Source of the DNA: a phage
Direction: 5' to 3' (one strand)
Assembly (NCBI GenBank): GCA_012439925.1
Contig: GCA_012439925.1_4519.1
Length of the DNA stretch: 64,000 nt
Shown here: piece by piece, positions 20,527 through 63,375 of the stretch
Layout: every line of letters begins with the position of its first letter
Numbering within the stretch: position 1 is the first letter of the stretch
Made by a program: the position numbers and the translations under genes
The notes under the pieces: model-generated
Seen by the model: the letters and a program-made list of their open reading frames with translations, nothing else
What the model was told of the DNA's origin: nothing
Databases searched by the model: none

Positions 20527-20560
20527 GTTTACATCTTCCTCTAGGCATGATATGATGTAC
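20527..20560 (+). promoter_or_regulatory. Early promoter (GTTTACA -35 / TATGAT -10)
   Basis: -35 and -10 hexamers separated by 17 nt upstream of the 20586 ORF. Confidence 0.5.
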
Positions 20561-20585
20561 TTACACCAACCAAGAGGAAAACATT

Positions 20586-20960
20586 ATGAATATGTCTCAA
20601 GCAATTTTTACTGCAATCACCGAAAACACAACTGTTGAAGTAGTTTCTCCGCTGGTAACCTACGTTATTCTTGCCCCTAAAACTATTGTATCTCGTATGG
20701 AAAACATGGGCAAACGTATCGTACAAATTGTCGGAGCCGGAAATCAAAAACTTGATTATCTGCGAACCATCAAAGCTTATGAACATTTCCAACTCGAAAA
20801 AGGTTCTCCTATCCAGGTAGAACTCGTAAATGGTGATATCGTTCGAGCAATGTTCCATCATTTCTATGCATTGAATGACCCATCTAAAGCGGTTCGTTTA
20901 ATTGCATACGATGCAAACCAAAACGAAATCAACGCAGATGTATCTAAATTACGTTTTTAA
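20586..20960 (+). CDS. Hypothetical protein
   Basis: ATG ORF with AGAGGA SD downstream of an early promoter. Confidence 0.5.
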   Translation: MNMSQAIFTAITENTTVEVVSPLVTYVILAPKTIVSRMENMGKRIVQIVGAGNQKLDYLRTIKAYEHFQLEKGSPIQVELVNGDIVRAMFHHFYALNDPSKAVRLIAYDANQNEINADVSKLRF

Positions 20961-21000
20961 GTTTACTTCTCCAGTAGTTTTGTTATTATAGACCTATCAA
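20961..21000 (+). promoter_or_regulatory. Early promoter cassette (PeSL-like)
   Basis: GTTTAC ... TATTATAGACCTATCAA; the 9-bp inverted repeat CTCCAGTAG/CTACTGGAG flanks the -10 and its 3' arm overlaps the SD. Confidence 0.55.
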
Positions 21001-21015
21001 CTACTGGAGAACAAA

Positions 21016-21333
21016 ATGAAAACCATCGATTGTAAAGCAGAATTTAAGATTTTTTATCACGGTTCAAGTAGTTCAGCTAACATCGAAAACATGCTTTGTC
21101 CTCCTGAAGAAACAGGAGTTCTGTCTGAAACTGGACGTAAGAAAAACTTGGATCGTGTATTCTTTACTGAAGATATCGGTTTAGCAAAGATTTATGCAGG
21201 ACGAGCAGCACGCTCTTATGGAGGTGAACCACGTCTCTATCGAGTAATTTCTCCGGTAGACGTAGTTCAAATGAATGATACTAAAGGTGCTACAGTTTAT
21301 CACGCTGAATGGGCCTTCTGTGAGGAAATATGA
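21016..21333 (+). CDS. Hypothetical protein with HGS ... Y-x9-Y ... E pattern
   Basis: FYHGSS, KIYAGRAARSYGG and a C-terminal HAEWAFCEE resemble the H-Y-E ADP-ribosyltransferase triad, but the protein is only 105 aa. Confidence 0.5.
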   Translation: MKTIDCKAEFKIFYHGSSSSANIENMLCPPEETGVLSETGRKKNLDRVFFTEDIGLAKIYAGRAARSYGGEPRLYRVISPVDVVQMNDTKGATVYHAEWAFCEEI

Positions 21334-21521
21334 GCAAATTAACTAAAGTTACTTTTATCGGTTGGTTTAAAAGCGGCGAGATGTTCACTAAAGATATCAT
21401 GTTATCAGGTGATCGCGAAGAAATCGAGTGGGTTGCGGTACAACTTGCCGAAGTGAACAATGCATTAGTTAAAGCATTTATTAATGACGAGAAAGTTTTT
21501 GAAGCTGATTTCAGAGGATAA
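21330..21521 (+). CDS. Hypothetical protein
   Basis: ATGA overlap with the previous gene. Confidence 0.4.
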   Translation: MSKLTKVTFIGWFKSGEMFTKDIMLSGDREEIEWVAVQLAEVNNALVKAFINDEKVFEADFRG

Positions 21522-21522
21522 T

Positions 21523-21735
21523 ATGTATTCAACTGTGTTTAAACCATCGACATACGAATTTGCATCAACTACACAATGGAAAGCTCTTATTCTGGAAGGA
21601 TGGGAACTAATGATGGATTGTGAAGCATCTGAAAAGTTTCCACACGGCAAAGTGGACTTCGTTAAATTTGCTGTACGTCCGACTAAACGACAGATTCGTC
21701 AAGAAAAACGCAAATTTCGCAAAAGTTTAAAATAG
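21523..21735 (+). CDS. Hypothetical protein
   Basis: ATG 1 nt after the previous stop with AGAGGA SD (the longer ORF-track form overlaps the upstream gene). Confidence 0.4.
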   Translation: MYSTVFKPSTYEFASTTQWKALILEGWELMMDCEASEKFPHGKVDFVKFAVRPTKRQIRQEKRKFRKSLK

Positions 21736-21737
21736 CT

Positions 21738-21778
21738 GTTTACAAGCACTACATACTGTGTTACTATCTTTCTATCAA
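21738..21778 (+). promoter_or_regulatory. Early promoter cassette (PeSL-like)
   Basis: GTTTACA, 17-nt spacer, TACTAT, then CTTTCTATCAA. Confidence 0.5.
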
Positions 21779-21795
21779 CTACAGAGGAAATTGAA

Positions 21796-22164
21796 ATGAA
21801 AAAATTAATCGCTTTAGCAATGGTATTTGGATTAACCGGATGTGGTGCCCGTGGCTTTATCCCTAATAATGTCGGCCAATTGATTTATAACCCGAATGTT
21901 AAACAGTACAACCAACCTAAAGTTGAAGTGGAAGACCCGGTTACTGTAGGTAATCGAATGATTCAAGCTGATGCCAATGCTCAACGTTATCGTGACTCTG
22001 ATACTGTAGCATTGTCAAAAGAACAACGCGTTAAAGAACATTGCTTACAGGCTACTGAAATCGCATTCATTCGCTATGTTGAAACAACTGGTAAAGAGCC
22101 TTCCCAGAAACAAATCGCGAATAACTACGTCCAGTGTATTGAACGTTTAAACAAATTTAATTAA
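21796..22164 (+). CDS. Putative lipoprotein
   Basis: Signal peptide with lipobox: MKKLIALAMVFGLTGC. Confidence 0.55.
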   Translation: MKKLIALAMVFGLTGCGARGFIPNNVGQLIYNPNVKQYNQPKVEVEDPVTVGNRMIQADANAQRYRDSDTVALSKEQRVKEHCLQATEIAFIRYVETTGKEPSQKQIANNYVQCIERLNKFN

Positions 22165-22167
22165 TCG

Positions 22168-22205
22168 GTTTACACCAAAGTTAAAATAAGATACTATAAA
22201 CATAA
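22168..22205 (+). promoter_or_regulatory. Early promoter
   Basis: GTTTACA, 17-nt spacer, TACTAT. Confidence 0.45.
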
Positions 22206-22225
22206 CAAATCAAGAGGAAATTAAC

Positions 22226-22474
22226 ATGGAATTATTCGTAGCTAGTTCAGTAGCAGTTTTAATCGCAGGTATTGGTTCAATCATCATTTACATGTTGCCT
22301 TGGGTAATCGCACTTATTCGTGGCACAAAAAGCACAACAGCAATCTTCTTTGTATCTTTACTCTTTAACTGGACGATGATTGGTTGGATTGGAACTTTAA
22401 TTTGGTCTATCGTTGCCGAAAAGAAATCTGCTCAGCAGCCTCAACAAGTAATTATTATTCGCGAAAAAGAATAA
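22226..22474 (+). CDS. Small two-TM membrane protein (Imm-like superinfection-immunity candidate)
   Basis: Two hydrophobic helices separated by RGTKSTT; 82 aa. Confidence 0.5.
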   Translation: MELFVASSVAVLIAGIGSIIIYMLPWVIALIRGTKSTTAIFFVSLLFNWTMIGWIGTLIWSIVAEKKSAQQPQQVIIIREKE

Positions 22475-22478: not shown

Positions 22479-22520
22479 GTTTACATTATAGATGGACTAT
22501 GGTATAGTAGTCCTATCAAA
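22479..22520 (+). promoter_or_regulatory. Early promoter cassette (PeSL-like)
   Basis: GTTTACA, 17 nt, TGgTATAGT (extended -10); inverted repeat GGACTA/TAGTCC straddles the -10. Confidence 0.55.
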
Positions 22521-22537
22521 TCAACTAAGGAGTTAAA

Positions 22538-22831
22538 ATGAAAAAGTTATCATTGGCAGCAATCTTACTTGCAGTATCATGTGCACCAGCTCCAGTTACA
22601 GCAGGTTATGATAAAGACCTCTGTGAGTGGTCAATGACTGCAAATCAAGAAGATGTTGAACAACAAATCTTCTCTGATATCGTGAACATCACTAAACGAG
22701 ACCGTCCTAATATGGTTAATAAAGTTGTTGAACAACTTAAGTCCGGCGGTATCATGCAGTACAACTATGTTTTGTATTGTGACCCTAATTTCGATAACAA
22801 AGATATCGTAACCGAAATCACAGGTGAATAA
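22538..22831 (+). CDS. Secreted small protein, Spackle (Sp)-like
   Basis: Signal peptide MKKLSLAAILLAVSC...; 97 aa; GYDKDLCEW...YNYVLYCD resembles what I recall of T4 Sp. Confidence 0.5.
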   Translation: MKKLSLAAILLAVSCAPAPVTAGYDKDLCEWSMTANQEDVEQQIFSDIVNITKRDRPNMVNKVVEQLKSGGIMQYNYVLYCDPNFDNKDIVTEITGE

Positions 22832-26317: not shown

Positions 26318-26326
26318 ATAATTTAA

Positions 26327-26350
26327 GGAATCCTTCGGGATTCCTTTTTT
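26327..26350 (+). terminator. Terminator GGAATCC-TTCG-GGATTCC + T6
   Basis: Perfect hairpin followed by TTTTTT. Confidence 0.7.
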
Positions 26351-26360: not shown

Positions 26361-26395
26361 GTTTACATCCACTAAAAACTATGTTAAGATATTCT
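26361..26395 (+). promoter_or_regulatory. Early promoter
   Basis: GTTTACA, 17 nt, TAAGAT. Confidence 0.4.
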
Positions 26396-26418
26396 TACTT
26401 ACTCAAGAGGAGAACATT

Positions 26419-26646
26419 ATGTTAAATCGTTGGATTAAACCTAATAACACATTAGGCGCTTTGATTGCACAAGAAGTTTCGCTGAAATACGGTCTTGGAT
26501 ATTATGATGACGTAGTCGTACACTCATTCATGATGGATGGTGAAGACGTCAAATTTAATGCCGAAATCCATTGGGATGATGGCGGTGTTCGTTTTGTTCG
26601 AGGAACAATTAATGCTTACGATGCTGAAGAAGTTATTTGTTGTTAA
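26419..26646 (+). CDS. Hypothetical protein
   Basis: ATG with AGAGGAG SD. Confidence 0.45.
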   Translation: MLNRWIKPNNTLGALIAQEVSLKYGLGYYDDVVVHSFMMDGEDVKFNAEIHWDDGGVRFVRGTINAYDAEEVICC

Positions 26647-27832: not shown

Positions 27833-27870
27833 GTTTACATTCCCTCCTCTCGTGTTATGATAGGCTTATC
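27833..27870 (+). promoter_or_regulatory. Early promoter
   Basis: GTTTACA, 16 nt, TATGAT. Confidence 0.45.
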
Positions 27871-27888
27871 TTTAAATGGAGGTCTATC

Positions 27889-28470
27889 ATGACATGTCAA
27901 TCTGAACTTCAAGAACGCGAATATCTCGCAGCACTAATTGATGATAAATTCACTAAACAAGAACAAAACATTCTCTGGGCTTGCACTGATTATAAGGAAG
28001 ACCCAGATTTCCACTATGAATTAGACCATCTTGTTCGTAAGCATATGACTTCTACAGTACCAGTAGAACTCTACCGTGGTGTAACTCCAGAAGAAGTAGA
28101 ACGTCTTTCCCTTCTTTCTGTTGGATGTCATTGGTCTCCCGGACGAGTAACATCGTTTACAACAGACTTTGGTACGGCCAGACAGTTCTCTGGGAGTTGG
28201 GAATATCAAACGTACACTATTCTTAGTCTCAGGAATGCTCCGTTCATTTTCGATTACTACCAAAACATGGTTAACATTGTACTCGCCGGAAAGAACCCTA
28301 AGCATGTTATGGAAGAAAAACGTGTTGACGTCCTAGATATGATTGAATCTGAACAAGAATACATGGTCTCAGGTATCTCTAGATTTGAGATTGTAGAAAT
28401 TGAAGACTTAGAATATGACCCTTTATCTCGGTTATACAAAATCATTCATTTGAAAATGTTGAATTTTTAG
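27889..28470 (+). CDS. ADP-ribosyltransferase, ModA/ModB family (R-S-EXE)
   Basis: YRG (Arg), TSFTTDFGTARQF (S-T-S-like), EQEYMVSG (Q/E-x-E); 193 aa; tandem with a paralog. Confidence 0.55.
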   Translation: MTCQSELQEREYLAALIDDKFTKQEQNILWACTDYKEDPDFHYELDHLVRKHMTSTVPVELYRGVTPEEVERLSLLSVGCHWSPGRVTSFTTDFGTARQFSGSWEYQTYTILSLRNAPFIFDYYQNMVNIVLAGKNPKHVMEEKRVDVLDMIESEQEYMVSGISRFEIVEIEDLEYDPLSRLYKIIHLKMLNF

Positions 28471-28510
28471 TGTACAAACTCTTCCGATGATGATACTATA
28501 CCTTTATCAA
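28470..28510 (+). promoter_or_regulatory. Early promoter cassette
   Basis: GTGTACA ... TACTATACCTTTATCAA. Confidence 0.4.
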
Positions 28511-28527
28511 CCACAGGAGAAACCTAA

Positions 28528-29136
28528 ATGTTTATGCCGTATAACGAGTGTGAAATTGAAGAAATGGTTCGTCGTGCTCAATGCCCAGATTATCAAGATA
28601 TGCTTCAGTACAAAATCGATGAGCAATTCAGCGACATTGAACAAAGTGTACTATGGCAGTGTATGGAAAACAAGCCAGACTGTATTCAACAGGAGTTAAG
28701 TTCAATCGTTCGTAGAAATTGGACGTCTTCAGTTCCTGAGACAATGTATCGTGGAATCTCTAAGAAAACTATGGCCACACTCGACGATAAAGGCATTGGT
28801 AGTATTATTAAATTTGACAGAGTAATGAGCTTCAGTCCGGTGTTCAGTGTAGCACGTAACTTCGCTTCATATAATTTTTATGGAACATTTAATATGTTCT
28901 GCATCAAAGATGCACCATTTGCTTTCAACTTCCGTGAACATATGCTTAACATGATTCTGGCTGCGCCATCTTGTGAGTTCAATGGAGCTTTCCCTGAAGC
29001 GACAAGACGGTCTAATGCTAGACTTATATCTGACGAATGCGAATTTATGCTCCCTATAGGGACTACACTACGTGTAGATTCTATTATTCAAGATGGACGT
29101 TATACAATCTGGAATCTGTCTATTGTCAGTTACTGA
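28528..29136 (+). CDS. ADP-ribosyltransferase, ModA/ModB family (paralog)
   Basis: YRG, MSFSPVFSVARNF, ECEFMLPIG; 202 aa. Confidence 0.55.
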   Translation: MFMPYNECEIEEMVRRAQCPDYQDMLQYKIDEQFSDIEQSVLWQCMENKPDCIQQELSSIVRRNWTSSVPETMYRGISKKTMATLDDKGIGSIIKFDRVMSFSPVFSVARNFASYNFYGTFNMFCIKDAPFAFNFREHMLNMILAAPSCEFNGAFPEATRRSNARLISDECEFMLPIGTTLRVDSIIQDGRYTIWNLSIVSY

Positions 29137-29210: not shown

Positions 29211-29250
29211 GTGTACACTACCTGAGGGCATGATATTATAGACCTATCAG
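29211..29250 (+). promoter_or_regulatory. Early promoter cassette
   Basis: GTGTACA ... TATTATAGACCTATCAG. Confidence 0.4.
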
Positions 29251-29289
29251 CTAAATGACCTTAACGTCCGTAAGACAGAGGAAAATATT

Positions 29290-30036
29290 ATGTTATCAAA
29301 TAATAAAATTAACAAAATCAATCGTCGTCTTGACCACACCAGAGCTTCTGCGAAGAGACGCTCTAAGGATTTTAACTTAGACTTTAATTACCTTAAAAAC
29401 ATTCTTGATCAAAAGGTCTGCGCTTACTCAGGTGAATCTTTCAATAACTCTGTTGAAGGTGAGAAATTATCCTTAGAACGTTTTAATAATGATATAGGCT
29501 ACATTAAAGGTAATGTTATCCCGGTTAAGAAAAAATATAACACTGCTCGTTCTGATTTAACATTAGAAGAACTTATTGGGAAACGCGATGCCATTGCAAG
29601 ACGTATCGCTAATCCTTCTGTCCGTAAAGTAGAGAAACTTAATCTCGACGAGAAGAAATGGGCCCAAATTAAAAAGGTTTATGATACTATTTTAAAAATC
29701 CGAGCAAAACGTGAAAATCGTGTTAAGCATATGGCGAACATGATGAAAAATCAACCTTTATCTAACGAATCTAAACTTAGAATTGTTGCTTTGAAAGCAC
29801 GCATTAATGGCTCACATCAAGCAGAAGGCCATGAACTTACTAAACTCAACGTTCTTCTTAAAGGCTCTGACTGGAAAACTAAAACTAAATTAACTGATGC
29901 TGAATCGCTTTTCGATACATATGATAAAGTTATCCAAGGTTTGCAACGTTTTGAAAAGATTGGTTTCATTGGTAAATTAAAATTGAAACGTGGCTTACCA
30001 CTTAGCGCATCATTATTCCAACTTATTAAAGGTTAA
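29290..30036 (+). CDS. Hypothetical protein (at the position of srd in T4)
   Basis: 248 aa, basic; synteny modA/modB - this gene - dda.1 - dda. Not verified as Srd. Confidence 0.5.
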   Translation: MLSNNKINKINRRLDHTRASAKRRSKDFNLDFNYLKNILDQKVCAYSGESFNNSVEGEKLSLERFNNDIGYIKGNVIPVKKKYNTARSDLTLEELIGKRDAIARRIANPSVRKVEKLNLDEKKWAQIKKVYDTILKIRAKRENRVKHMANMMKNQPLSNESKLRIVALKARINGSHQAEGHELTKLNVLLKGSDWKTKTKLTDAESLFDTYDKVIQGLQRFEKIGFIGKLKLKRGLPLSASLFQLIKG

Positions 30037-32352: not shown

Positions 32353-32392
32353 GTTTACAACCAAGGATGGTTGGAGTATAATCTTTCTATCT
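32353..32392 (+). promoter_or_regulatory. Early promoter
   Basis: GTTTACA, 17 nt, TATAAT. Confidence 0.55.
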
Positions 32393-32413
32393 TAACCAAA
32401 CAGGAAAAACATT

Positions 32414-32908
32414 ATGAATATCAATACTACGGCTACTTACATCCTGAAAGACGAAAAACAAATCAACTGGTACAGTGCTTCAGTGCGAGCTTACGAAAAG
32501 TTTTGTGAAATTTTAGGTGCCACTCAAGGCAATAGTTTCACTATTGTTAACTTCATCAAACAAGCTGAAGGCCCTTGGTTATTCTTAGAAATTAAAAATT
32601 CATATGGTACAATTTCTACTACCGCCCTTCCAAGCACAGACTTTGAACTGTTGATTGAAGAAGTAGAACCCGTTAAAGACATCTGTATTGATATGGATAT
32701 CGCTTGTATGTACGGTACTCTGATTAAGCCTATTGAGCCTACTGATTTGTTGTGTAAATATGTTTCAATTCGACGTCCGTTCGCAGGTCCAGTAAATGGA
32801 TGGGTAACTGACCAGTGGATTGAAGACGGTGTTGAACTTCTGAACGTTGTTCATGCAGGTGATTTTAGTGTAGTTCCACGTAGTGCTGTGGTTAATATCC
32901 TTAATTAA
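32414..32908 (+). CDS. Hypothetical protein, paralog family member 1
   Basis: Shares a C-terminal domain (GWVTDQWIEDGVELLNVVHAGDFSVV) with the next two genes. Confidence 0.5.
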   Translation: MNINTTATYILKDEKQINWYSASVRAYEKFCEILGATQGNSFTIVNFIKQAEGPWLFLEIKNSYGTISTTALPSTDFELLIEEVEPVKDICIDMDIACMYGTLIKPIEPTDLLCKYVSIRRPFAGPVNGWVTDQWIEDGVELLNVVHAGDFSVVPRSAVVNILN

Positions 32909-32950
32909 TGTTGTATATCCAAGGATGGATGGAGTATAATGAATTCAATT
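32909..32950 (+). promoter_or_regulatory. Early promoter (near-duplicate of the 32353 promoter)
   Basis: TTGTATATCCAAGGATGGATGGAGTATAAT versus GTTTACAACCAAGGATGGTTGGAGTATAAT. Confidence 0.45.
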
Positions 32951-32970
32951 TAAACAAAGAGAGAGAAATT

Positions 32971-33456
32971 ATGAATCTTGGTATTATTGGTGAAATCGTT
33001 CGCGTATCTAACAAATCTCGTTCTAAAGCCGCAGGAAAATTGGTCGAAGTTGTAAGTATTCAACTTAAAGAAGGCGTTAAAGATGAAGATTCTGAGGTAA
33101 AAGTTCGTATTATTCCTAGTTTTGGGACACAGGAAACCAAATTTGCTTATGTTCGTGCAAAGTTCTTGGAAACGCCTGTGAGTAGTGCTTTTGCTTCAAG
33201 AGAAAAAGTTGAATCCACAGAGCATAATGTACAGTTCAAATGGGCCCTTTGCAAAGGCGTTGAATTCCAGACTGATAAAGAATTTGACTTCATCGATGAA
33301 TACGGTTATCCAAGCAAAACTGATACTATGTGTGGCTTCATTAGTGACCAATGGGTTGAAGATGGTGAAAAGTTATACAATATCGTATTCTTAGGTGACT
33401 TCAGAGTTGTTAAAGAATCCGAAATCACTCGTTATGTGTCTCCTCGTAAAGCTTAA
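32971..33456 (+). CDS. Hypothetical protein, paralog family member 2
   Basis: Start placed after the internal promoter; GFISDQWVEDGEKLYNIVFLGDFRVV. Confidence 0.5.
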   Translation: MNLGIIGEIVRVSNKSRSKAAGKLVEVVSIQLKEGVKDEDSEVKVRIIPSFGTQETKFAYVRAKFLETPVSSAFASREKVESTEHNVQFKWALCKGVEFQTDKEFDFIDEYGYPSKTDTMCGFISDQWVEDGEKLYNIVFLGDFRVVKESEITRYVSPRKA

Positions 33457-33888: not shown

Positions 33889-33931
33889 TGTTTACTTCTC
33901 CTCTGGTTTTGATATTATAACCATATCAACC
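33889..33931 (+). promoter_or_regulatory. Early promoter cassette (PeSL-like)
   Basis: GTTTACTTCTCCTCTGGTTTTGATATTATAACCATATCAACCAGAGGAG; inverted repeat CCTCTGG/CCAGAGG flanks the -10; near-copy of the 20961 cassette. Confidence 0.55.
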
Positions 33932-33944
33932 AGAGGAGAATAAT

Positions 33945-34469
33945 ATGTTAGTTTACCGCGTAGAACGTAGTTTTTGTACTCAACGTGAATCATTACCAGG
34001 AATTGCCATCGAAGACGGTAAAGCCGTCAGAATTTGGGAAACCTCTTGGAATAAAGAACCTCGCTCACCTTACGGTTGGTCTGGCACTGACAACTCTGAA
34101 GAAACATGGGAGTTCCTTGATAAACATGGAATACTCTCAGGTAACTTCTACCATCACGGCGACAACTATAATGTCCCTAATCGTCCTACAGTAAATGAAG
34201 ACAAACTCCTTGAACAAAATATCTTAAGATACCATAGAATTGAGCACACATTTGAATTGAACAAAGATTGGGCTCAAGAGTTCTATTTTGGATTTGAAAG
34301 TGTTGACGCGGTTTATGCATGGTTTGATGACCAGGTGGATGTTGAACTCTTGAAAGCTAAAGGATACTACATCGCGGTCTATGAAGCACCTGATTTCATA
34401 CTCGGAAGTTGTCAATTAATGTTTAGACGTTCATTGGCAGAACAAGTTGATTTTATTTTGCTAAAATGA
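33945..34469 (+). CDS. Hypothetical protein
   Basis: ATG ORF of 174 aa. Confidence 0.5.
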   Translation: MLVYRVERSFCTQRESLPGIAIEDGKAVRIWETSWNKEPRSPYGWSGTDNSEETWEFLDKHGILSGNFYHHGDNYNVPNRPTVNEDKLLEQNILRYHRIEHTFELNKDWAQEFYFGFESVDAVYAWFDDQVDVELLKAKGYYIAVYEAPDFILGSCQLMFRRSLAEQVDFILLK

Positions 34470-34510
34470 TGTACAACAACTATGGTCTATGATACTATAG
34501 ACCTATCAAA
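34470..34510 (+). promoter_or_regulatory. Early promoter cassette (PeSL-like)
   Basis: TGTACAA ... TACTATAGACCTATCAA; inverted repeat GGTCTAT/ATAGACC. Confidence 0.45.
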
Positions 34511-34526
34511 ACAAGAGGAGAATATT

Positions 34527-34754
34527 ATGAAACGTCAAATCATTAAAAACGTAACTACTGATTCAAACATCGATGAGTTTGAAGATGTTCTGTTTAATCC
34601 TGATTTAGTTGTTGTACAGAAAAACTGGACCGAATTTTTATGCTACACCGAAGTGGTTTACGTTTACGAAAAACTTGGCGATGAAATGCCTATCTACGGT
34701 ATCTTCCGTGAAATCACTGAAAACGGTACAACTTATTGGAAGGAAACTTACTAA
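34527..34754 (+). CDS. Hypothetical protein
   Basis: ATG after AGAGGAG, downstream of the promoter. Confidence 0.45.
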
Positions 34755-43870: not shown

Positions 43871-43906
43871 TGTACAAACTCTTGAGAGCAGAGTATAATG
43901 CTCTCA
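43871..43906 (+). promoter_or_regulatory. Early promoter cassette (PeSL-like)
   Basis: TGTACAA ... TATAAT, with the 7-bp inverted repeat GAGAGCA/TGCTCTC flanking the -10. Confidence 0.5.
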
Positions 43907-43944
43907 TGGATTACAAAAAACATTAATCAATTGAGGAAATTAGC

Positions 43945-46136: not shown

Positions 46137-46157
46137 GGGAGCTTCGGCTCCCTTTTG
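46137..46157 (+). terminator. Terminator GGGAGC-TTCG-GCTCCC + T4
   Basis: Perfect hairpin followed by TTTT. Confidence 0.65.
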
Positions 46158-46179
46158 TGCATTTTTTTCTCACAAAACA

Positions 46180-46220
46180 GTTTACATGTGCTTCAAACAT
46201 GATATTATAGACCTATCAAA
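46180..46220 (+). promoter_or_regulatory. Early promoter cassette
   Basis: GTTTACA ... TATTATAGACCTATCAA. Confidence 0.5.
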
Positions 46221-46247
46221 ACAAAACAGCCAAATTGGAGAAATAAA

Positions 46248-46880
46248 ATGTCTAAAGTTACTTACATCATCAAAGCTTCTGAAAACGCTCTGAATGAAAA
46301 AACTGCTGCAATAATGGTTTATATCATTAAGAACAACTTCACCACTGCTGCCAATGTCCGTGAAGCTCTGGAAGCAGAATACAGTGCATCAGTTGTTAAC
46401 TCTAACATTGGTGTATTGATTAAGAAAGGTTTAGTCGAAAAATCCGGTGATGGACTTGTAGCAACAGGCGAAGCAATGGATATTATCCAAAAAGCTGCAG
46501 ACCTCTTTGCCCAAGAAAATGCTCCAGAACTTCTTCAGAAACGTAACACCAGAAAAGCACGTGGAGTTACTCCTGAAATGCATGAATTAGCAAACTTTGT
46601 TTTTGAAAATATTAAAGATAAAGTTGAAGTTAAAGAAATTGGTGAAAACCGTAGTAACTTAGAAGTTCGATTCGCTAAACGAGTTCTAGGCATTCGCCAA
46701 ATTGAAATTCGACGAGATGGCGCTCTTAGAATCTTTGCATACAACATGTCAGAAACTGAATCAAAGCTGTTTACTTCTCTTGAAAATGATGTTAAGATTA
46801 AGATCGGTGGTAAATATACTTACATTGACTTCCCTAATGTGTCTAAAGAAATCATTACCCTTGTAACTAACGTACTGTGA
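46248..46880 (+). CDS. motA: Middle-transcription activator MotA
   Basis: MSKVTYIIKAS ... NSNIGVLIKKGLVEKSGDGL matches remembered T4 MotA; 210 aa. Confidence 0.85.
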   Translation: MSKVTYIIKASENALNEKTAAIMVYIIKNNFTTAANVREALEAEYSASVVNSNIGVLIKKGLVEKSGDGLVATGEAMDIIQKAADLFAQENAPELLQKRNTRKARGVTPEMHELANFVFENIKDKVEVKEIGENRSNLEVRFAKRVLGIRQIEIRRDGALRIFAYNMSETESKLFTSLENDVKIKIGGKYTYIDFPNVSKEIITLVTNVL

Positions 46881-48533: not shown

Positions 48534-48695
48534 ATGAGCCATAATCTGCAGAACGTAGTAGAGGCAGAACGTGAGCGTGAGGCTTTAGTCTATAATGAAC
48601 TATTAGCCACGTTCTTGGCCTTACACTCGTATGAACAGGAAGACTACACTGATTACGTTAAAAGTGTAGAAAAAGCTGTTTACAATCAACACTGA
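48534..48695 (+). CDS. Hypothetical small protein
   Basis: ATG after AAGGA; alternative to the overlapping 48480 ORF. Confidence 0.3.
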   Translation: MSHNLQNVVEAEREREALVYNELLATFLALHSYEQEDYTDYVKSVEKAVYNQH

Positions 48696-48720
48696 TAATG
48701 GTACTATACTCATATCAACA
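48678..48720 (+). promoter_or_regulatory. Early promoter upstream of asiA
   Basis: GTTTACA, 17 nt, TGgTACTAT, then ACTCATATCAACA. Confidence 0.5.
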
Positions 48721-48741
48721 AAATGGAATGAATAAAACGTT

Positions 48742-49014
48742 ATGAATAAAGATATTGAAATTGTACGTGAAATTATTACGGTTGCTTCTATTTTGATTAA
48801 ATTCTCTAGGGAAGATATTGTTGAAGACCGAGCAAATTTCATCGGATTCTTGAATGAGATTGGAATTAAAAAAGATGGTCGGCAGCTAAATCAGAATTCG
48901 TTCAGAAAACTAATTACAAATTTAACTGCCGAAGAAAAGAAAACACTGATTAGTGAATTCAATGAAGGTTTTGAAAATATTTATCGCCATTTGACGATGT
49001 ATTCTAACAACTAA
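48742..49014 (+). CDS. asiA: Anti-sigma-70 factor AsiA
   Basis: REIITVASILIKFSREDIVE ... matches remembered T4 AsiA; 90 aa. Confidence 0.85.
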   Translation: MNKDIEIVREIITVASILIKFSREDIVEDRANFIGFLNEIGIKKDGRQLNQNSFRKLITNLTAEEKKTLISEFNEGFENIYRHLTMYSNN

Positions 49015-49701: not shown

Positions 49702-49719
49702 ATTGAGAGGTATTATCGT

Positions 49720-50493
49720 TTAAATCCAGGAGCCGTAGATTGTGCCTGTAGCACCCCATGACGGTGAACTTCCGAATACTGCTCTGCCAGGAGCACCACC
49801 GCCAGATCTAGATAAGTGATTACCCCATCCATCTCCGCCCCGACCCCCAGCATCGCCACCATTACCACCGCCGAATTGGGAAGTGTAACCGGCACCACCA
49901 GGCGCGTCATAACTAGCATTACCACCCGGCCAATTAACGCCACCTCCGCCGATGCCAAATGGTCTACCACCACCGCCACCTGCTGTAGCATTTGGCGCCC
50001 AGCTATTCTGTAATGACACTGCACCACCTCCGCCACCGCCTGATGCAATAACACCATAGTTCCAAATACGAAGTCTTCCGCCGATATCATTTTGGATTAC
50101 ATCGCCACCATTAGTGCCTGGGTTTCCGTTTACAGTACCGTTACCACCTCGTCCCCACATATGAACTCCACCATGAATATTCAAAGTAACATATTCATTT
50201 GGCGTATCGCCATACATAAAGAATAATGGAACATCTTTACTATATGATACCAAATTTCCGGTGATATTAAACACTATAGGTGCACTACCCGCCTCAAAAC
50301 ATCTATCTCGGAACCATTGACCGTTGAAGTTATGGTCTGCTCCAAGTGTGTGAATTATTTCAACAGATCGACCTATCATATTACTCATCCAAAACGGAAT
50401 TCCCATTCTCAATCTCTGCGCGGCACCACCCATCCAATTTTGTCCTGTATTAACTACTGCAGACGATCCTACCCACGGTCCTGTTACTGCCAT
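49720..50493 (-). CDS. 38: Tail fiber adhesin gp38 (T2/T6-type, glycine-rich)
   Basis: N-terminus [13 protein letters not shown] plus poly-Gly segments ([14 protein letters not shown] ...) typical of T2-type gp38 adhesins. Confidence 0.8.
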
Positions 50494-50505
50494 ATAAACC
50501 TCCAA

Positions 50506-50519
50506 GGGGCCGAAGCCCC
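50506..50519 (-). other. Hairpin between genes 37 and 38
   Basis: GGGGC-TTCG-GCCCC on the - strand immediately upstream of the gp38 SD. Confidence 0.5.
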
Positions 50520-50524
50520 TCTTA

Positions 50525-53500
50525 TTATTTTAACAATGATTTAACTAATGCTTTAAGTTCTTCAATTTCTGATTTAAGTTCCGCAATTTCTGCAGTATGC
50601 TCATTGATTGCAGCTGTATTTAAACCAATTACACCGTTATAGTTCAAACGAAGTAAAGCTTCACCATCCGGGTCGCCTTCAACTAATTCTGGTAAAATAG
50701 CTTGAACTTCTTGAGCAATTAAACCGGCGTTAGGTTCCCATTTCTGATTGCCTTCTTCGTCCGTTCCACGTTTCTGCATATAAGTGTAACCGTTAATTTT
50801 AGAAAGCTTCTGAGAAGCATTTTCAAATTTAACGAGGTCTTTTTTAACACGAATATCAGAGCGGACATAAACATCACGGACAAACGTTGAATAGCTGTCA
50901 TTCGCCTGAACGAGATGCCCATGAGAAACGATAGCTCTTCCAACTTCTGTCCAAAAAGCACCGGTTGAATCCCAAAGCCCAGGATGAGATTGATAGCCTG
51001 CTCCCCAGTTTGCAATATGTATACCATTGGCAACCATATTGATTCGGCCGTCACCACCATGAACTAATCCAGTATCATTATCGCCAATAACAAGACATGG
51101 TCCAGTCCACACCGGGTCACCACCGCCAGCCGATAATCTTGCTCCAGTTTGTACCATGTTAGGAGCATACATAACTCCATTGTGGTGGAATTCATAGATA
51201 GCTTGTGGATCGCTAGCATTTTCCTGGTTACCAACACGAATAATAGCCTGAGCCCATTGGTTAGTGGTACGGCGCATACCAAAATCAACACCAGATACGT
51301 ATCCTTCATTCGTAATAACAGATTTTCCTTTGATAATTGGATAATAACTATCATTACCGACATAGCCAAAATCCACAAATACGGGGGCTTCTAAGCCCCA
51401 TTGGTCGCCCCAAGCGCCAGATTTATGTGCAACCCATTGACTAGCATTTATATAAAGGCGGTCTCTATTAAAATTAAATGTTCCTTGTCCTTGAGGAGAA
51501 AGCGATATTTCACCGGTATTTGTTATGTATACACCGCCTTGTGTAATGTAACTGTAAAAACCTAGACCATTGTCGGCACCGCCTTTACCAATATACCAAT
51601 TATTGGCCCCGGCCGTATCAGAACGAATAAATGATGAATCACTGGTCAAAGGAGGATTAAGAACTATTCCAGCGGCATCTTTATTAATCCAAAGAGTGCC
51701 GGTCATCGTGTCGCCTTCTTTCGAAACACGAGTCGCAATAGCATCGCGAATATTTGTAGTATCACCGGCAGAAGTAAACGTTTTCCAGATATCAGACCAG
51801 ATATTACCATTGCGAGCAATAGTAGCTTCACCGCCGCCAACAGCAACGTTATCTGGGAAGTTAACAGTACCGTCTTGATTAAAACGAGACGTATGGCCTT
51901 GTGAACCATCTTCTTTCAGATGATGAATAACGAATGTACCCGAATTAATTTCAGTACCTAAAGACCAAACGGCTTTACCATTTAAAAACTTCTGTTTAAC
52001 AATAGGATAATATTTGCTTACAGCATCATCATCAATTTCCTGGAAAATAGGAGCCGCTTGGGCATATTGAATATCATATCCACCTGCGCCAGCGCCATGA
52101 CCAACAAATTTAATATAGCCGTTCGCTGCGAACGTATTGTAACTTGATTGTAAATCTGGAATAGTAACTTTACCGGTATCTAAAGCCATACTAAACGGGC
52201 GAAGTGGACCGATATCACCATTTTTGCCTTCACCGTAAGCAGTTGGAATAATATGAAGACTACCTTCTGAACGTCTAAAAATGGCTCCATAATCTGCATT
52301 CCAAATGCGAAGTGCATTCACTGCTCCAGATGAAATTTCACCTGTTGTGTGAACTCCTCTATCTCCAGCAGTAACACCAGATGATTCAAATGAACCATTA
52401 ACGTTCATTTCTACTTCGCCAGTAGTAAGTCTTTGAATATAGCTCATCCAGCTAGTTGCATCAGAAATTTCCATAATGTTTTTACGGATACCTCCGCTTG
52501 GATCAACAAACGTATTACCCCAAACTTTAATATCCATATTATCAACCGAGCTGTATCCTGTTGTGTTGCCTCTAAACATTAGTGTAGAAGAATTATTTCT
52601 ACCATCTATATTTACAGAACCGCCAATAACGTCAATATTACCAGGAGTAACTAACAAACCGCCGTGAGTATTAATGTTTGTAGTACCCTTGCCGCGGAAA
52701 TAATGATGATAGTTACCGCCTTGATAATATCCCAAAAGAGTCTGACCATCTCCAAACGCGTTATTATCGTGATATGTCACAACAGTAGCAAGAGCATAGT
52801 TTTCAGTTGGAGGAGTAGTTAAATCGGTTCCATTAGTAGAATATCCAGCTACAAATTTTCTTAGGCTAGTTGTTTCGCTAGGATTAAATAAAAACGTTTT
52901 TGTTCCATTATTAACGCTGAAATAATATCCGTCTTGATGCCATTTAAATCCAGTATCATTATCTCCTAAAGCAATGCTAGATGGTCCTAATATTGAATAA
53001 TCTTTATTACCTGGTGTTAAACCGATAGAAATTGAGTGACTTGATTTAATTCCGCCGCTCCAGGTAAATGACCAAAGATAAGCATCTAATCCATCTCCAC
53101 TATACCAAGTTATTCCATCATTATCTTTAACTTCATGGAAAATACCAGAACCAACGGCATTACGCATGACACGAAGATGATTAATAGCAGTAGTGCTTTC
53201 AGACAATGGAACATTGTCTGCCATCGAATAGATGTCATAATCACCCGTAGATTTATTATTAGTAATGACTTTGTTGGTTAGAATTTGTGGAGACGAAATA
53301 GATTTCCATGCTGATACTTCAGGTGAAGTAAATAGTCCACTGCCTGAAAATGCATAAGTGCTTTCGCTACCAGCGGCATAGTCTTGAACCCTGATATTAA
53401 GTACTTGTGTAGTTAAACCATCATTAGCCGGGGCATAAATGATTCCGCGTTCGCGACTATTGTTATCGAAAAAACGAACATGTGCTGTGCCTGAACTTTT

Positions 53501-53839
53501 TGTAATAAGTTCACCGCCTTCAGTCATAATCTGCCCGGCGGCAAAAATATCGCGAGTTACTCGAGCAATACCAGTTAAATTAAAATTACCCGTCTGTGTG
53601 AAGACGCCATTTAAAGTATAATCACCAGTTTGGTTGTAATTGCCAGTATGAATAACATTCCCGTCAATACTACCACCTTTAGCAAAACCTAGATCAATAA
53701 TATTTCCTTGGTCATCTTTAGTAAAAAGTACACGGTCTTTTAAGTTTATAGCCAATTCACCTTCGGCTAATACTGAAGCGGCAGGACGTGCTCCTGCAGT
53801 TTTGCTTCTTTTAAATTGTATTTGTTTTAAAGTAGCCAT
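50525..53839 (-). CDS. 37: Long tail fiber distal subunit gp37
   Basis: [36 protein letters not shown] matches the T4 gp37 N-terminus; 1104 aa. Confidence 0.9.
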
Positions 53840-59587: not shown

Positions 59588-59625
59588 ATTTACGCTTTCG
59601 AACTAGTATGTTACTATAGTCCAAG
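59588..59625 (+). promoter_or_regulatory. Early promoter upstream of rnh
   Basis: TTTACG, 17 nt, TACTAT, then AGTCCAAG. Confidence 0.4.
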
Positions 59626-59650
59626 TTGACTAACTGAACAAGAGGTTCAT

Positions 59651-60568
59651 ATGGATTTAGAAATGATGTTGAATGAAGATTACAAAGAAGGTATTGCACT
59701 TGCCGACTTTAGTAACATTGCATTGGCAGCTGCATTAAACAACTTTGAAGACGGTGATAAAATTACTGTTCCGATGGTTCGCCATGTAGTCTTGAATTCA
59801 ATTCGTAAAAACGTAGTGATGTTCCGTAAGCAAGGTTATACAAAATTTGTATTGTGCATGGATAACGCTACTTCTGGATATTGGCGTCGTGACTTTGCTT
59901 ACTATTATAAGAAAAATCGTAAAACCGATCGTGAAGCTTCAAAGTGGGATTGGGAAGGATATTTTACTGCACTTCATCAAGTTGTTGATGAGATTAAGAA
60001 ATATATGCCATACGTTGTAATGGATATTGACAAATACGAAGCGGATGACCATATCGGTGTATTAACTAAATATTTGTCATTAGCTGGTCATAAGGTATGT
60101 ATTGTTGCATCAGATGGTGACTTTACACAATTACACAAATATCCTAACGTTAAACAGTGGTCGCCACCACAGAAAAAATGGGTTAAAATTAAGAATGGTT
60201 CTGCTGAAATTGATTGCATGACTAAAATTCTTAAAGGCGACCGTAAGGATGGTGTTGCATCTGTTCGAGTTCGTGGTGACTTCTGGTTTACTCGAGTTGA
60301 AGGTGAACGAACTCCAAGCATGAAAACATCAATTATTGAAGCAATTGCTAACGACCGTTCTCAAGCTGAAGTATTATTAAGTGCAGAAGAATATAAACGG
60401 TATCAAGAAAATTTGGTTCTCATTGATTTTGATTATATCCCTGATAATATTGCTTCAACCATTATAGAGTATTATAACTCGTATAAACAACAACCTAAAG
60501 GCAAGATTTATTCATACTTTGTAAAATCTGGTCTTTCTAAATTAACAAGTGTAATTAATGAATTCTGA
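59651..60568 (+). CDS. rnh: RNase H (5'-3' exonuclease, FEN family)
   Basis: 305 aa; matches remembered T4 RNase H. Confidence 0.85.
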   Translation: MDLEMMLNEDYKEGIALADFSNIALAAALNNFEDGDKITVPMVRHVVLNSIRKNVVMFRKQGYTKFVLCMDNATSGYWRRDFAYYYKKNRKTDREASKWDWEGYFTALHQVVDEIKKYMPYVVMDIDKYEADDHIGVLTKYLSLAGHKVCIVASDGDFTQLHKYPNVKQWSPPQKKWVKIKNGSAEIDCMTKILKGDRKDGVASVRVRGDFWFTRVEGERTPSMKTSIIEAIANDRSQAEVLLSAEEYKRYQENLVLIDFDYIPDNIASTIIEYYNSYKQQPKGKIYSYFVKSGLSKLTSVINEF

Positions 60569-61811: not shown

Positions 61812-61840
61812 GCTTTATTTCTTGTGTGTTAAAATTACTT

Positions 61841-61848
61841 TATAAATA
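61841..61848 (+). promoter_or_regulatory. Late promoter TATAAATA upstream of gene 32
   Basis: Exact consensus. Confidence 0.5.
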
Positions 61849-61858
61849 AATCATACCA

Positions 61859-61927
61859 GCTACGAGGTATAAGTGTCGTAGCAACCAACTGTAAATAAAT
61901 TAAATAATCTAAATAAAGGTAAATATA
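61859..61927 (+). promoter_or_regulatory. Gene 32 autoregulatory translational operator (hairpin + A/U-rich tract)
   Basis: Hairpin GCTACGA-(10 nt)-TCGTAGC followed by TAAATAAATTAAATAATCTAAATAAAGG up to the ATG; consistent with the gp32 operator in T4. Confidence 0.5.
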
Positions 61928-62827
61928 ATGTTTAAACGTAAATCTACTGCTGACCTCGCTGCTCAAATGGCTAAACTGAATGGTAACAAAGGTTTCTCTT
62001 CAGAAGATAAAGGCGAATGGAAGCTGAAGCTAGATGCATCAGGTAATGGTCAAGCGGTAATTCGTTTCTTGCCAGCAAAAACTGATGATGCACTACCATT
62101 TGCAATTCTTGTTAACCACGGTTTCAAGAAAAATGGTAAATGGTATATTGAAAATTGCTCTTCTACACATGGTGATTACGACTCTTGTCCTGTATGTCAG
62201 TACATTAGTAAAAATGACCTGTACAATACCAACAAAACTGAATATTCTCAACTGAAACGTAAAACTTCTTATTGGGCTAATATTCTGGTTGTTAAAGACC
62301 CTCAAGCTCCAGATAATGAAGGTAAAGTATTTAAATATCGTTTCGGTAAAAAGATTTGGGACAAAATCAATGCAATGATTGCAGTTGATACCGAAATGGG
62401 TGAAACTCCAGTTGATGTTACTTGTCCGTTTGAAGGTGCTAACTTCGTTCTGAAAGCTAAGCAGGTTTCCGGTTTTAGCAACTATGACGAATCTAAATTC
62501 TTGGGTCAATCTGAAATTCCTCGTATTAATGACGAAGCATTCCAGAAAGAACTATACGACCAGATGGTAGACCTTACTACTTTGACGGCTAAAGACCAGT
62601 TCAAATCCTTTGAAAAATTAAATGAATCTTTCGCTAAGGTTCTTGGTACTGCCGCTCTTGGCGGTGCAGCAGCTGCCGCAGCTTCTGTCGCAGATAAAGT
62701 TGCTTCCGACCTTGACGATTTTGATAAAGACATGGAAGCCTTTAGTTCTGCAAAAACTGAAGATGACTTCATGAGTTCCTCGTCTTCTGACGATGGCGAC
62801 CTCGATGACCTGTTAGCTGGTCTATAA
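61928..62827 (+). CDS. 32: ssDNA-binding protein gp32
   Basis: [36 protein letters not shown] ... zinc site H/CxxC ([16 protein letters not shown]); acidic C-terminus. Confidence 0.9.
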
Positions 62828-62833
62828 TAAATT

Positions 62834-62855
62834 GGGAGACTTCGGTCTCCCTTTT
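62834..62855 (+). terminator. Terminator GGGAGAC-TTCG-GTCTCCC + T4
   Basis: Perfect hairpin followed by TTTT. Confidence 0.7.
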
Positions 62856-62872
62856 GAGTATCTGTAAATTGC

Positions 62873-62912
62873 CGAAAAAAGTTGTTTACTTCTTCCCTGG
62901 ATGTGTTAGTAT
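62873..62912 (+). promoter_or_regulatory. Early promoter cassette
   Basis: GTTTACT ... TAGTATAGACTTATCAA. Confidence 0.5.
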
Positions 62913-62941
62913 AGACTTATCAACAACATGAGGAAATCAAA

Positions 62942-63334
62942 ATGGAAATCGGAAAATCTTATATCATTAACCCTTTATTTAAAGATGACTTTGTTCAAGA
63001 AGCACCACACAATAATGCTAAGATGTTAAAATTGATTGAACTCCACGGGCCTAGTTTTGTTGTAAACGGAATGGAACCTGATTATGATAGCGATACGTCA
63101 AACGTAGTAAGTGTAACTATGGAAGATGGTACGGTATGTTCTGCCGGTGGTGAAATTGAAACTTATTTTGAGATTTATCCTGACGAGTTCAAATACTTTA
63201 CTGAGGTAGATTTAGTAAAGCCTCAACCTACTAACGAAGGTATAACTTTAGGTGTAACAAAAATCCATTGTATCGTAGATGAAACCAACGTCGACGAAAT
63301 CATCAAACTTTTGCAAAAAACTTTTAAAAAGTAG
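62942..63334 (+). CDS. Hypothetical protein
   Basis: ATG with GAGGAAA SD; 130 aa. Confidence 0.5.
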   Translation: MEIGKSYIINPLFKDDFVQEAPHNNAKMLKLIELHGPSFVVNGMEPDYDSDTSNVVSVTMEDGTVCSAGGEIETYFEIYPDEFKYFTEVDLVKPQPTNEGITLGVTKIHCIVDETNVDEIIKLLQKTFKK

Positions 63335-63375
63335 TTTATAACAAGATAGGGCTATGTTATAGTAGTCCTATCAAA
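63334..63375 (+). promoter_or_regulatory. Early promoter cassette (PeSL-like)
   Basis: GTTTATA, 17 nt, TGtTATAGT; inverted repeat GATAGGGCT/AGTCCTATC with one mismatch. Confidence 0.5.

Follow-up and report, generated by a model that had tools for sequence, protein, structure and literature searches.

The window, a stretch of 64,000 nt of phage DNA (GenBank assembly GCA_012439925.1, contig GCA_012439925.1_4519.1), carries 21 predicted early-promoter cassettes, many of them overlaid by inverted repeats, and these cassettes are the subject of our analysis. Between positions 20000 and 44000 it is 96–98% identical, over the full length, to many Mosigvirus coliphages (RB69-like; Straboviridae, Tevenvirinae), and by this measure the window is the early region of an RB69-like Mosigvirus phage. 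The gene layout, drawn from the annotation of a close relative, Pfam and the list of open reading frames (ORFs), begins on the + strand with replication genes from 1 to 20.5 kb (44, 62, regA, 43 ... uvsX, 40, 41). An early accessory region follows at 20.5–49 kb, with dmd, imm.1, imm, sp, 61, 56, soc, mrh, modB, modA and srd, then dda, dexA, the motB family, cef, 39, rIIA, rIIB and denB, and finally ndd, 52, motA, arn and asiA. Genes t, 38, 37, 36, 35 and 34 occupy the − strand from 49 to 59.5 kb, and from 59.6 kb the genes are again on the + strand, starting with rnh. No Rfam family was found in the window.

All 21 cassettes fall within the early accessory regions (20.5–49 kb and 59.6–63.4 kb), and none lies in the replication cluster (1–20 kb) or among the tail-fibre genes. 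The ORFs that they serve encode 66–305 aa, and several match no Pfam family. Orthologues of T4 early genes found 3' of the sites are the dmd cluster, imm.1, imm, sp, mrh.2, modB, modA, srd, motB.1, motB, motB.2, cef, ndd.1, ndd, motA, asiA, rnh and frd.2.

The cassettes as T4-type early promoters

A preliminary description of the window had listed 21 near-identical early-promoter sites sharing the motif GTTTACA-N17-TAYWAT. All 21 are present, at or within 1–11 nt of where it placed them (those given as 33889, 34470, 43871 and 62873 begin 1–11 nt away from the −35 hexamer). All lie on the + strand, each 5' of a Shine–Dalgarno (SD) sequence and an ATG by 8–45 nt, and the leaders, mostly 20–25 nt, are strikingly uniform. 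We refer to each cassette by its approximate start position. The sites are clearly related but not near-identical: their mean pairwise identity is 59% over 37 aligned positions, and outside the hexamers it is 49%, compared with 27% expected from composition. The literal motif is also real, with 0.01 matches expected, but it describes just four of the sites and not all 21.

A two-block weight matrix was built from the sites and applied to both strands, with leave-one-out scoring of each site. The matrix retrieves 20 of the 21 sites and nothing comparable elsewhere on either strand, where the next-best scores are 12.3 bits on the + strand (site 17455) and 12.3 bits on the − strand. When each site is left out in turn, 18 of the 21 score above the top background on both strands (11.0 bits), the weak sites being 32909 (−8.7), 43871 (5.5, a distinct sub-type) and 59588 (9.4). 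The sole unlisted + strand match, at 17455–17490 just 5' of uvsX, has TATAAT with TGCTGTA at approximately −30 and by sequence looks like a MotA-dependent middle promoter, not an early one. A generic scan for sigma-70 hexamers gave 59 matches against 67.6 in shuffled sequence, which is not above chance, so the specificity must reside in the T4-type extended motif.

An alignment of the cassettes upholds the earlier suggestion that their similarity reaches beyond the −35 and −10 hexamers, namely at −15/−14, from −3 to +3 and in an A-rich stretch at −44 to −39. Specifically, TG is conserved at −15/−14 (17 and 16 of 21), C at −3 (15/21), T at −1 (18/21), A at +1 (20/21) and C at +3 (15/21). When a promoter is defined by a −35 GTTTAC(A/T), a 16–17-nt spacer and a −10 TAnnnT with T−12, A−11 and T−7, 20 of the 21 fit; the sole misfit is 32909, with GTTGTA and 19-nt spacing. 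The same motif stands 5' of orthologous genes, on the sense strand only, in T4, a T4-like Hafnia phage, JS98 (Dhakavirus), TH55 (Gaprivervirus) and ES12, and Serratia phage CHI14 has fewer matches to the same matrix. Scanning IMG/VR with GTTTAC-N17/18-TATAGT-N6-ATC (15 fixed bases) gave chance matches only, and a search for related loci by ModB alone returned three.

For RB69 itself, 57 early promoters have been predicted (Nolan 2006, PMC1524935), which have a GTTTAC −35 box, are A-rich at −40 to −44, carry C at −3 to −1 and sit 5' to both T4 orthologues and novel ORFs. This prediction, the 96–98% identity to Mosigvirus genomes, the early-gene orthologues 3' of the sites and the sense-only motif in relatives all agree with the identification as early promoters. 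Judged from the sequence, the elements belong to the known T4-type early promoters, each joined to the start region of its gene.

Inverted repeats and their geometry

Every inverted repeat quoted in the preliminary description was found, and most are longer than had been noticed (11 bp in 20961 and 13 bp in 33890; that of 43871 has 7 bp). GGACTA/TAGTCC and its variants in 22479, 43096, 43608 and 63334 extend to 9–11 bp when the outer GATAG/CTATC pairing is counted. A stem-loop lies within or beside the promoter in approximately 12 of the 21 cassettes, and the folding z-score falls below −2 in five (20961, 27833, 33890, 43096 and 63334).

In the first of four geometries the hairpin occludes the SD and/or the AUG. 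The strongest such hairpin is in 33890 (33890–33947, 5' of motB.2), where a 13-bp stem is formed by arms at 33896–33908 and 33928–33940 (ΔG −23.9, z −5.9). In 20961 (20961–21018, 5' of a 105-aa ORF and then dmd) the arms at 20967–20977 and 21001–21011 make 11 bp that include GGAG (ΔG −18.8, z −4.9), and in 27833 (27833–27891, 5' of modB) the −10/discriminator region pairs with both SD and AUG through arms at 27853–27867 and 27878–27894 (ΔG −18.7, z −4.0). The fourth member is 29211 (29211–29292, 5' of srd), with a GTGTAC −35, a 44-nt leader and a leave-one-out score of 39.2, whose spacer/−10 region pairs with the AUG region. Occlusion is weaker in 28470 (28470–28530, 5' of modA; −35 GTGTAC, leave-one-out 25.3) and in 20527 (20527–20588, 5' of a 124-aa ORF without Pfam match; leave-one-out 12.2), where an anti-SD arm at 20536–20545 faces the SD arm at 20570–20579 with 9 of 10 positions paired.

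The second geometry places the −10 in the hairpin loop, with arms at approximately −29 to −16 and −8 to +3, and comprises six cassettes. These are 22479 (22479–22540, 5' of sp, spackle; arms 22491–22500 and 22507–22517), 34470 (34469–34529, 5' of cef, −35 ATGTAC; arms 34481–34490 and 34497–34506), 43096 (43096–43154, 5' of an 87-aa ORF without Pfam match; arms 43108–43117 and 43124–43133, ΔG −13.4, z −2.2), 43608 (43608–43669, 5' of ndd.1; arms 43621–43629 and 43636–43644), 43871 (43870–43947, 5' of ndd) and 63334 (63334–63401, 5' of a DUF5417 ORF). The stem of 34470 is GGTCTA/TAGACC, compensated relative to the GGACTA/TAGTCC class, and that of 43608 is GGATTA/TAGTCC, with one G.U pair and a longer stem in relatives. 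Cassette 43871 is a variant with a TTGTAC −35, of the type AAACTCTT-N6-AGAGTATAAT, and its TATAAT lies in the loop of a 7-bp hairpin (43883–43889 and 43900–43906). In 63334, which has a GTTTAT −35, the 11-bp stem (63345–63355 and 63362–63372) contains G.U pairs (ΔG −16.0, z −4.1).

The third geometry is a spacer hairpin with an AGGA loop. It is found in 32353 (32353–32416, 5' of a motB.1-like ORF), where 32359–32372 reads AACCA-AGGA-TGGTT, and in compensated form, ATCCA-AGGA-TGGAT at 32917–32930, in 32909 (32910–32973, 5' of motB), the degenerate cassette that failed the promoter definition above. We also observe AGGA-loop hairpins of 5–6 bp in the spacer, just 5' of the −10, at unrelated early promoters of several genera, with varying stems (AACCA, ATCCA, TTCCA, CCACA, GGCAA); examples are L002 (T4) at ∼30631, the sp promoter of L130 (CHI14) at 16311 and L141 (TH55, reverse-complement coordinate) at 1632. 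The conserved loop resembles an SD or the GGA(G/U) motif of RegB.

In the fourth geometry a separate GC-rich hairpin stands 5' of the −35 and closes the preceding unit. Such hairpins precede 20527 (the gene 41 terminator hairpin, 20504–20519), 26361 (26361–26421, 5' of mrh.2; soc terminator, 26325–26346) and 46180 (46180–46250, 5' of motA, leave-one-out 42.1; terminator, 46137–46152), and the arrangement of soc terminator and promoter recurs in T4 and JS98. The remaining cassettes are 21738 (21738–21798, 5' of imm.1, DUF5481; leave-one-out 36.7), whose hairpin is not significant (z 0.5), 22168 (22168–22228, 5' of imm; leave-one-out 27.2), which has none, 48678 (48678–48744, 5' of asiA; leave-one-out 35.0), where again the hairpin is not significant, the weaker 59588 (59588–59653, −35 ATTTAC, 5' of rnh, RNase H by Pfam) and 62884 (62884–62944, 5' of a frd.2-like ORF, Pfam FRD2; leave-one-out 36.6).

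In a chimera control the spacer of one cassette was combined with the part of another that runs from the −10 to the start codon, which keeps all conserved blocks in place. The duplex energy between native spacer and native downstream part beats that of the chimeras in the window (p = 0.00015), in T4 (p = 0.0014) and in JS98 (p = 0.0011), with p < 5e-5 for the pooled 41 cassettes. Of 65 cassettes from six genomes, 20% contain a Watson–Crick helix with a score of 8 or more, as against 2.4% of 3344 cross-genome chimeras.

Covariation points to pairing in sense-strand RNA

IMG/VR was searched with AAACTCTT-N6-AGAGTATAAT, both arms being left unspecified. Besides a few unrelated chance matches, which lie outside the T4 group and show no complementarity, the search yielded 14 distinct T4-like cassettes from ndd and motB promoters. 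In the alignment of these 14 sequences (alignment A1) all 98 cells of the 7-bp helix are paired, compared with a mean of 89.3% in 500 shuffles, none of which reaches 100%, and with 34–50% in slid registers. Three of the pairs have changed on both sides (11 cells). The 14 cells that are not Watson–Crick are all G.U, with no A.C, and because the departures are solely of this kind the pairing would be that of sense-strand RNA rather than of DNA or antisense RNA.

The same pattern of changed but maintained arms is seen in the other cassettes. In the TATAGT class, likewise retrieved without fixing the arms, six or more distinct arm pairs sit on a conserved GATAG/CTATC base. The sp promoter stem is GGACTA/TAGTCC in the window and the compensated GGTCTA/TAGACC in JS98, and the orthologous sp, motB, cef and modB promoters have kept their stems with different sequences. 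On these comparisons of sequences the inverted repeats exceed what chance would give and have been maintained in evolution, and the evidence points to stem-loops overlapping promoters having been selected as sense-strand RNA structures.

Predicted occlusion of the ribosome-binding site

The accessibility of SD and AUG was predicted for each cassette with its own upstream sequence and with 20 chimeric upstream sequences. For 20961, 27833, 29211 and 33890 the predicted accessibility is below that of all 20 chimeras, and the predicted accessibility in the read-through transcript is approximately half that in the proximal transcript. In 20961, for example, the probability that SD and AUG are unpaired is 0.17 with its own upstream sequence compared with 0.53 with chimeric ones, none of which is as low. 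For 28470, 2 of the 20 chimeras are as low, i.e., occlusion is weak. The preliminary description had noticed that the 3' arm includes the SD in at least two copies, and this holds for four or five (20961, 27833, 29211, 33890 and possibly 28470).

Two of these genes can be followed across lineages. The motB.2 promoters of five lineages all fold with −15 to −25 kcal/mol and have the SD in the 3' arm, while three lineages use the spacer and two the −10/discriminator as 5' arm; since occlusion is kept through different 5' arms, it is the occlusion itself that appears conserved. The occluding geometry is also conserved, with different sequences, for modB in T4, JS98 and this phage. Another T4-like phage (L184/L185, IMG/VR contigs) would combine two occlusions at the promoter GTTTACATGTTGATGTAGACATGGTATAGT: 12 nt of the spacer TGATGTAGACAT match perfectly, as complement, the start codon and the codons after it (ATGTCTACATCA), and the SD AGGAG can pair with the discriminator CTCCT.

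Across the cassettes the distribution of accessibility is bimodal. Nine cassettes, mostly with self-contained hairpins, are predicted to be more accessible with their own upstream sequence than with 17–20 of the 20 chimeras. The −10-in-loop hairpins leave the SD free, and shuffling their 5' arm lowers predicted accessibility by 0.08–0.18 in six cassettes of this class; the same treatment of 32353 leaves it unchanged (0.69 vs 0.71).

We also note, from a comparison by eye, that several cassette SDs (21006–21016, 63388–63398 and others) fit the consensus of RegB target sites, GG*AGRAYARAA (PMC3014915), e.g., GGAGAACAAAA in 20961 and GGAGAATAAAA in 63334. Secondary structure protects from RegB (reviewed in PMC3014915), and in the SD-occluding cassettes, where GGAG is predicted to be paired in read-through RNA, the transcript may escape cleavage.

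Cassettes at insertion and deletion endpoints

A survey of indels in the early region of the window against 15 close relatives (L numbers below) found approximately 13 distinct events, and three of these run from cassette to cassette. A 415-nt unit (20591–21005) is missing in L126, L128 and L135, which leaves a chimeric 20527/20961 cassette joined in the SD. L133 and L136 lack the motB.1 unit (∼500 nt) and have in its place a chimeric 32353/32909 cassette with a 55–67-nt overlap; the junction lies in the shared spacer hairpin/−10, and the motB promoter regains a proper GTTTAC. L126 has a second copy of the motA cassette (46180), and between the two copies lies an additional ORF of 71 aa (38235–38450 in L126, window equivalent 46171–46256). 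This ORF has no Pfam match, starts with motA codons 1–3 (MSK) and is followed by a hairpin and then the second complete motA cassette, a textbook example of cassette-flanked insertion. Cassette-mediated exchange is thus real, but it accounts for a minority of events.

Other candidates for cassette events were considered and rejected, because their junctions are microhomologies or lack a cassette: two deletions in modB, the 61.4 deletion, insertions at 56/soc and a 793-nt insertion after gene 39. Most of modB (27908–28435) has been deleted independently in at least two ways, one in L125 and one in L126/L133/L136, with short-microhomology junctions (e.g., AATCTGAAC). As the promoter and first codons remain while most of the gene is independently lost, this suggests that modB is dispensable in this group. 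The 793-nt insertion (L127 29954–30746; window 37643–37650) lies 3' of gene 39, whereas gene 56 of L135 is interrupted by 642 nt (L135 13288–14460; window ∼25500) with a faint NUMOD3 match; both insertions are probably homing-endonuclease elements and carry no early-promoter cassette. Outside the early region, the distal tail-fibre/adhesin segment with genes 38 and 37 (49704–53640) has been replaced or is highly diverged (unalignable or ∼73% identical) in all compared relatives, with flanks at 95–97%, consistent with host-range module swapping.

A model for the cassettes and its alternatives

We think it likely that the 21 elements are early promoters fused to translation initiation regions, that approximately half of them encode RNA hairpins that form only on read-through, and that the cassettes double as recombination homologies. 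In such a scheme each cassette would be a compact unit of ∼60–85 nt that runs from an A-rich UP-like stretch through a GTTTAC(A/T) −35, a 16–17-nt sigma-70-type spacer and a TG-extended −10 TA(T/C)NNT to the discriminator and start (..CCT ATC..), a ∼20–25-nt leader, a GGAG-type SD and the ATG. By analogy with mapped T4 promoters, host RNA polymerase with sigma-70 would start at the A of ATC; at a T4-type early promoter the enzyme, either unmodified or Alt-modified, would do so as soon as infection begins. In approximately half of the cassettes the spacer, the −6 to −2 positions and the leader, which RNA polymerase leaves free, are mutually complementary, and with +1 placed downstream of at least the 5' arm the hairpin would form only in sense read-through RNA and never in the cassette's own transcript.

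Two outcomes would be possible. In the first type (20961, 27833, 29211 and 33890, more weakly 20527 and 28470) the SD and/or AUG would serve as 3' arm, with the consequence that the gene would be translated only from its own early promoter. In the second (the six −10-in-loop cassettes together with 32353 and 32909) the hairpin would be self-contained and the SD free; its likeliest role would be to hold the pyrimidine-rich RNA of the promoter in a fold that stays clear of the ribosome site, to provide a stable 3' structure for the upstream mRNA, or both. Because the cassettes share sequence, they would also offer short portable homologies at which units of promoter and ORF come or go.

The strongest alternative, although unlikely here, is the original proposal for promoter-early stem-loop (PeSL) elements, in which the stem-loops are terminators or attenuators of upstream transcription and each of them ends one unit and starts the next. 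When an RB49/phi1 stem-loop was placed in front of lacZ, expression fell to an extent similar to that seen with the rrnB T1 terminator (Arbiol 2010, PMC2839356), a result that fits a block of translation as well as it fits termination, and translation is never discussed in the PeSL papers. In the window, three cassettes do have a classic GC-rich hairpin just upstream (20504–20519, 26325–26346 and 46137–46152). The latter two each have a T-run; 20504–20519 is followed by only TTT and was not flagged by our terminator scan, which asks for at least 5 T in the 8 nt after a hairpin. The embedded hairpins are different, with AU-rich stems of only 6–13 bp that precede A-rich leaders with 0–4 T in the next 8 nt; the scan called none of them terminator-like on the + strand, and for lack of U-tracts they are unlikely to be intrinsic terminators. 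Of all the hairpins, only the three that stand apart from the promoter, upstream of it, look like intrinsic terminators, and for the embedded ones the terminator half of the PeSL proposal is not supported. In the interval from 20 to 40 kb, just three terminator-like + strand sites border on a cassette or an intergenic gap (26325, 35773 and 37654), other matches being weaker and inside genes, and with so few terminators read-through is expected across most cassettes. Rho-dependent polarity after SD occlusion is possible.

It is considerably less probable that the inverted repeats act as DNA, either as cruciforms or hairpins that draw recombination (e.g., through endonuclease VII) or as palindromes to which a regulator of early promoters binds. 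In favour of this, three indels recombine at cassettes, GGGC/GCCC inverted repeats occur at T4 deletion endpoints (Mosig 1998, as reported by Arbiol 2010, PMC2839356), and early-promoter shut-off is described as incompletely understood (PMC3014915). However, the departures in alignment A1 are sense-strand G.U pairs (14 vs 0 A.C), i.e., mismatches in DNA and antisense RNA, the arm sequences are wholly different between cassettes, so that no common protein-binding site exists, and recombination has joined the cassettes within promoter or SD sequence that they share rather than at hairpin tips. Least probable, by a little, is that the hairpins are functionless by-products of cassette duplication, gene conversion or palindromic CTAT/ATAG blocks: sub-families do clearly share descent (TATAGTAGTCCTATC in four cassettes, TATTATAGACCTATCA in four), the outer GATAG/CTATC pairing draws on the conserved +1 block and many cassettes do without any hairpin, but chimeras that keep the conserved blocks pair far worse than native cassettes, compensatory change is seen in three pairs of alignment A1 and in the TATAGT class with its six or more arm variants, and the motB.2 SD is occluded in five lineages by non-homologous 5' arms.

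Several points weigh against the proposal of promoter-linked, read-through-only hairpins on shuffled cassettes. Nine or ten cassettes have no notable hairpin. SD occlusion as a general property of the family had to be rejected, as the average over all 21 cassettes shows no lowering of accessibility (p = 0.66) and occlusion is not seen in the other ∼15; the earlier idea that read-through transcripts sequester the SD thus survives the folding analysis in four or five cassettes but not family-wide. The effects that suggest an insulating role of the −10-in-loop hairpins are modest and in silico. The 14 sequences of alignment A1 are phylogenetically related, so that there are fewer independent events than the cell counts would suggest; in the pooled helix set from six genomes the G.U vs A.C count of 4:0 is not significant alone, and AGGA-loop hairpins have A.C at the loop-closing pair in five sequences. 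Predicted promoter activity and the position of +1 rest on homology with mapped T4 promoters, our literature search having found no 5'-end data for RB69-like phages and no RNA-seq or transcription-start study of T4 early promoters. Finally, although three indels join at cassettes, as the idea of modular shuffling had led one to look for, approximately 10 of 13 do not and have 5–9-nt microhomologies in or beside genes or are insertions that contain no cassette; breakpoints between genes would in any case be favoured by selection for whole-gene indels that leave the phage viable.

A more general proposal, to which we give somewhat less than even weight, is that T-even early promoters are dual-coded: the hairpin arms, encoded at promoter positions left unread by RNA polymerase, would set for each gene a state of expression from its own promoter only (immediate-early) or from any transcript, and this state would be kept by compensatory evolution across Tevenvirinae genera and moved with shuffled cassettes. 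If confirmed, it would help to explain how nested early units of T4-type phages tie genes to, or free them from, their own promoters, and why shuffled modules of promoter and ORF stay functional. It also provides concrete hairpins to mutate in a genetically tractable system.

Comparison with known systems

The promoters show no essential difference from the RB69 set (PMC1524935) and are the same family in a close relative. They share with it the GTTTAC −35, the A-rich −40 to −44 region, the invariant T−12, A−11 and T−7, C-richness at −3 to −1, location at early genes and novel ORFs, and a sense-only orientation; the RB69 description makes no mention of hairpins overlapping promoters.

The comparison with PeSL elements, which the preliminary description had drawn, is accurate. 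The consensus of the T4/PST promoters is TTTACW-N17-TAYWAT (Comeau 2014, PMC4122927), and PeSL stem-loops lie between −35 and −10 or overlap the −10, in five positional classes (Arbiol 2010, PMC2839356). PeSL cassettes from RB49/phi1, T4/PST and nt-1/KVP40 share with ours the order of AT-rich region, early promoter, stem-loop, SD and ATG, as well as the stem-loop positions, the T4/PST consensus, the place before small accessory ORFs, and gain and loss of ORF units between cassettes. PeSL elements are described as preferring hyperplastic regions, in front of small non-essential ORFs, which agrees with the early accessory regions here, and as giving rise to mini-circles excised between neighbouring cassettes. 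The positional classes seen in the window are upstream of the −35 (20527, 26361 and 46180), within the spacer, enclosing the −10, and reaching the leader/SD. The class with a stem-loop overlapping the −35 is absent from the window's cassettes; TH55 has an example at 5636 (L141, reverse-complement coordinate), a terminator-like hairpin AAAAGGGGC-TTAC-GGCCCCTTTT with the −35 hexamer GCTTAC in its loop. The stems differ in being AU-rich and without U-tracts here, compared with GC-rich G(n)/C(n) stems in PeSL, and whereas T4/PST stem-loops lie just upstream of the promoter (PMC4122927), most of ours enclose the −10 or reach the SD.

At the level of RNA the closest parallels are the T4 genes e, soc, 49 and I-TevI, for which it was shown experimentally that a hairpin with an internal promoter inside it sequesters the translation start (PMC3014915). 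The SD/AUG as 3' arm and a 5' arm upstream of the start site of the internal promoter are common to both systems. In those genes, however, the internal promoter is a late one (TATAAATA) and the purpose is delayed expression, whereas the promoters here are of the early sigma-70 type and known by prediction. Moreover, the 5' arm in the cassettes is the promoter's own spacer or −10 region, and the arrangement is found in 4–5 of 21 cassettes.

Both the RB69/T4 early promoter family and the PeSL idea are thus already published, and our analysis confirms that they apply to this Mosigvirus. It goes slightly beyond the literature consulted in its evidence for selection on sense RNA, i.e., the compensatory changes, the exceptions that are G.U only, and the difference between native and chimeric cassettes in three genera. 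Since the PeSL papers (PMC2839356, PMC4122927) considered neither translation nor covariation at the level of RNA, and the T4/PST stem-loops lie upstream of the promoter, the covariation and the two-way effect on accessibility are best regarded as an incremental addition to these known systems, not as a new kind of element.

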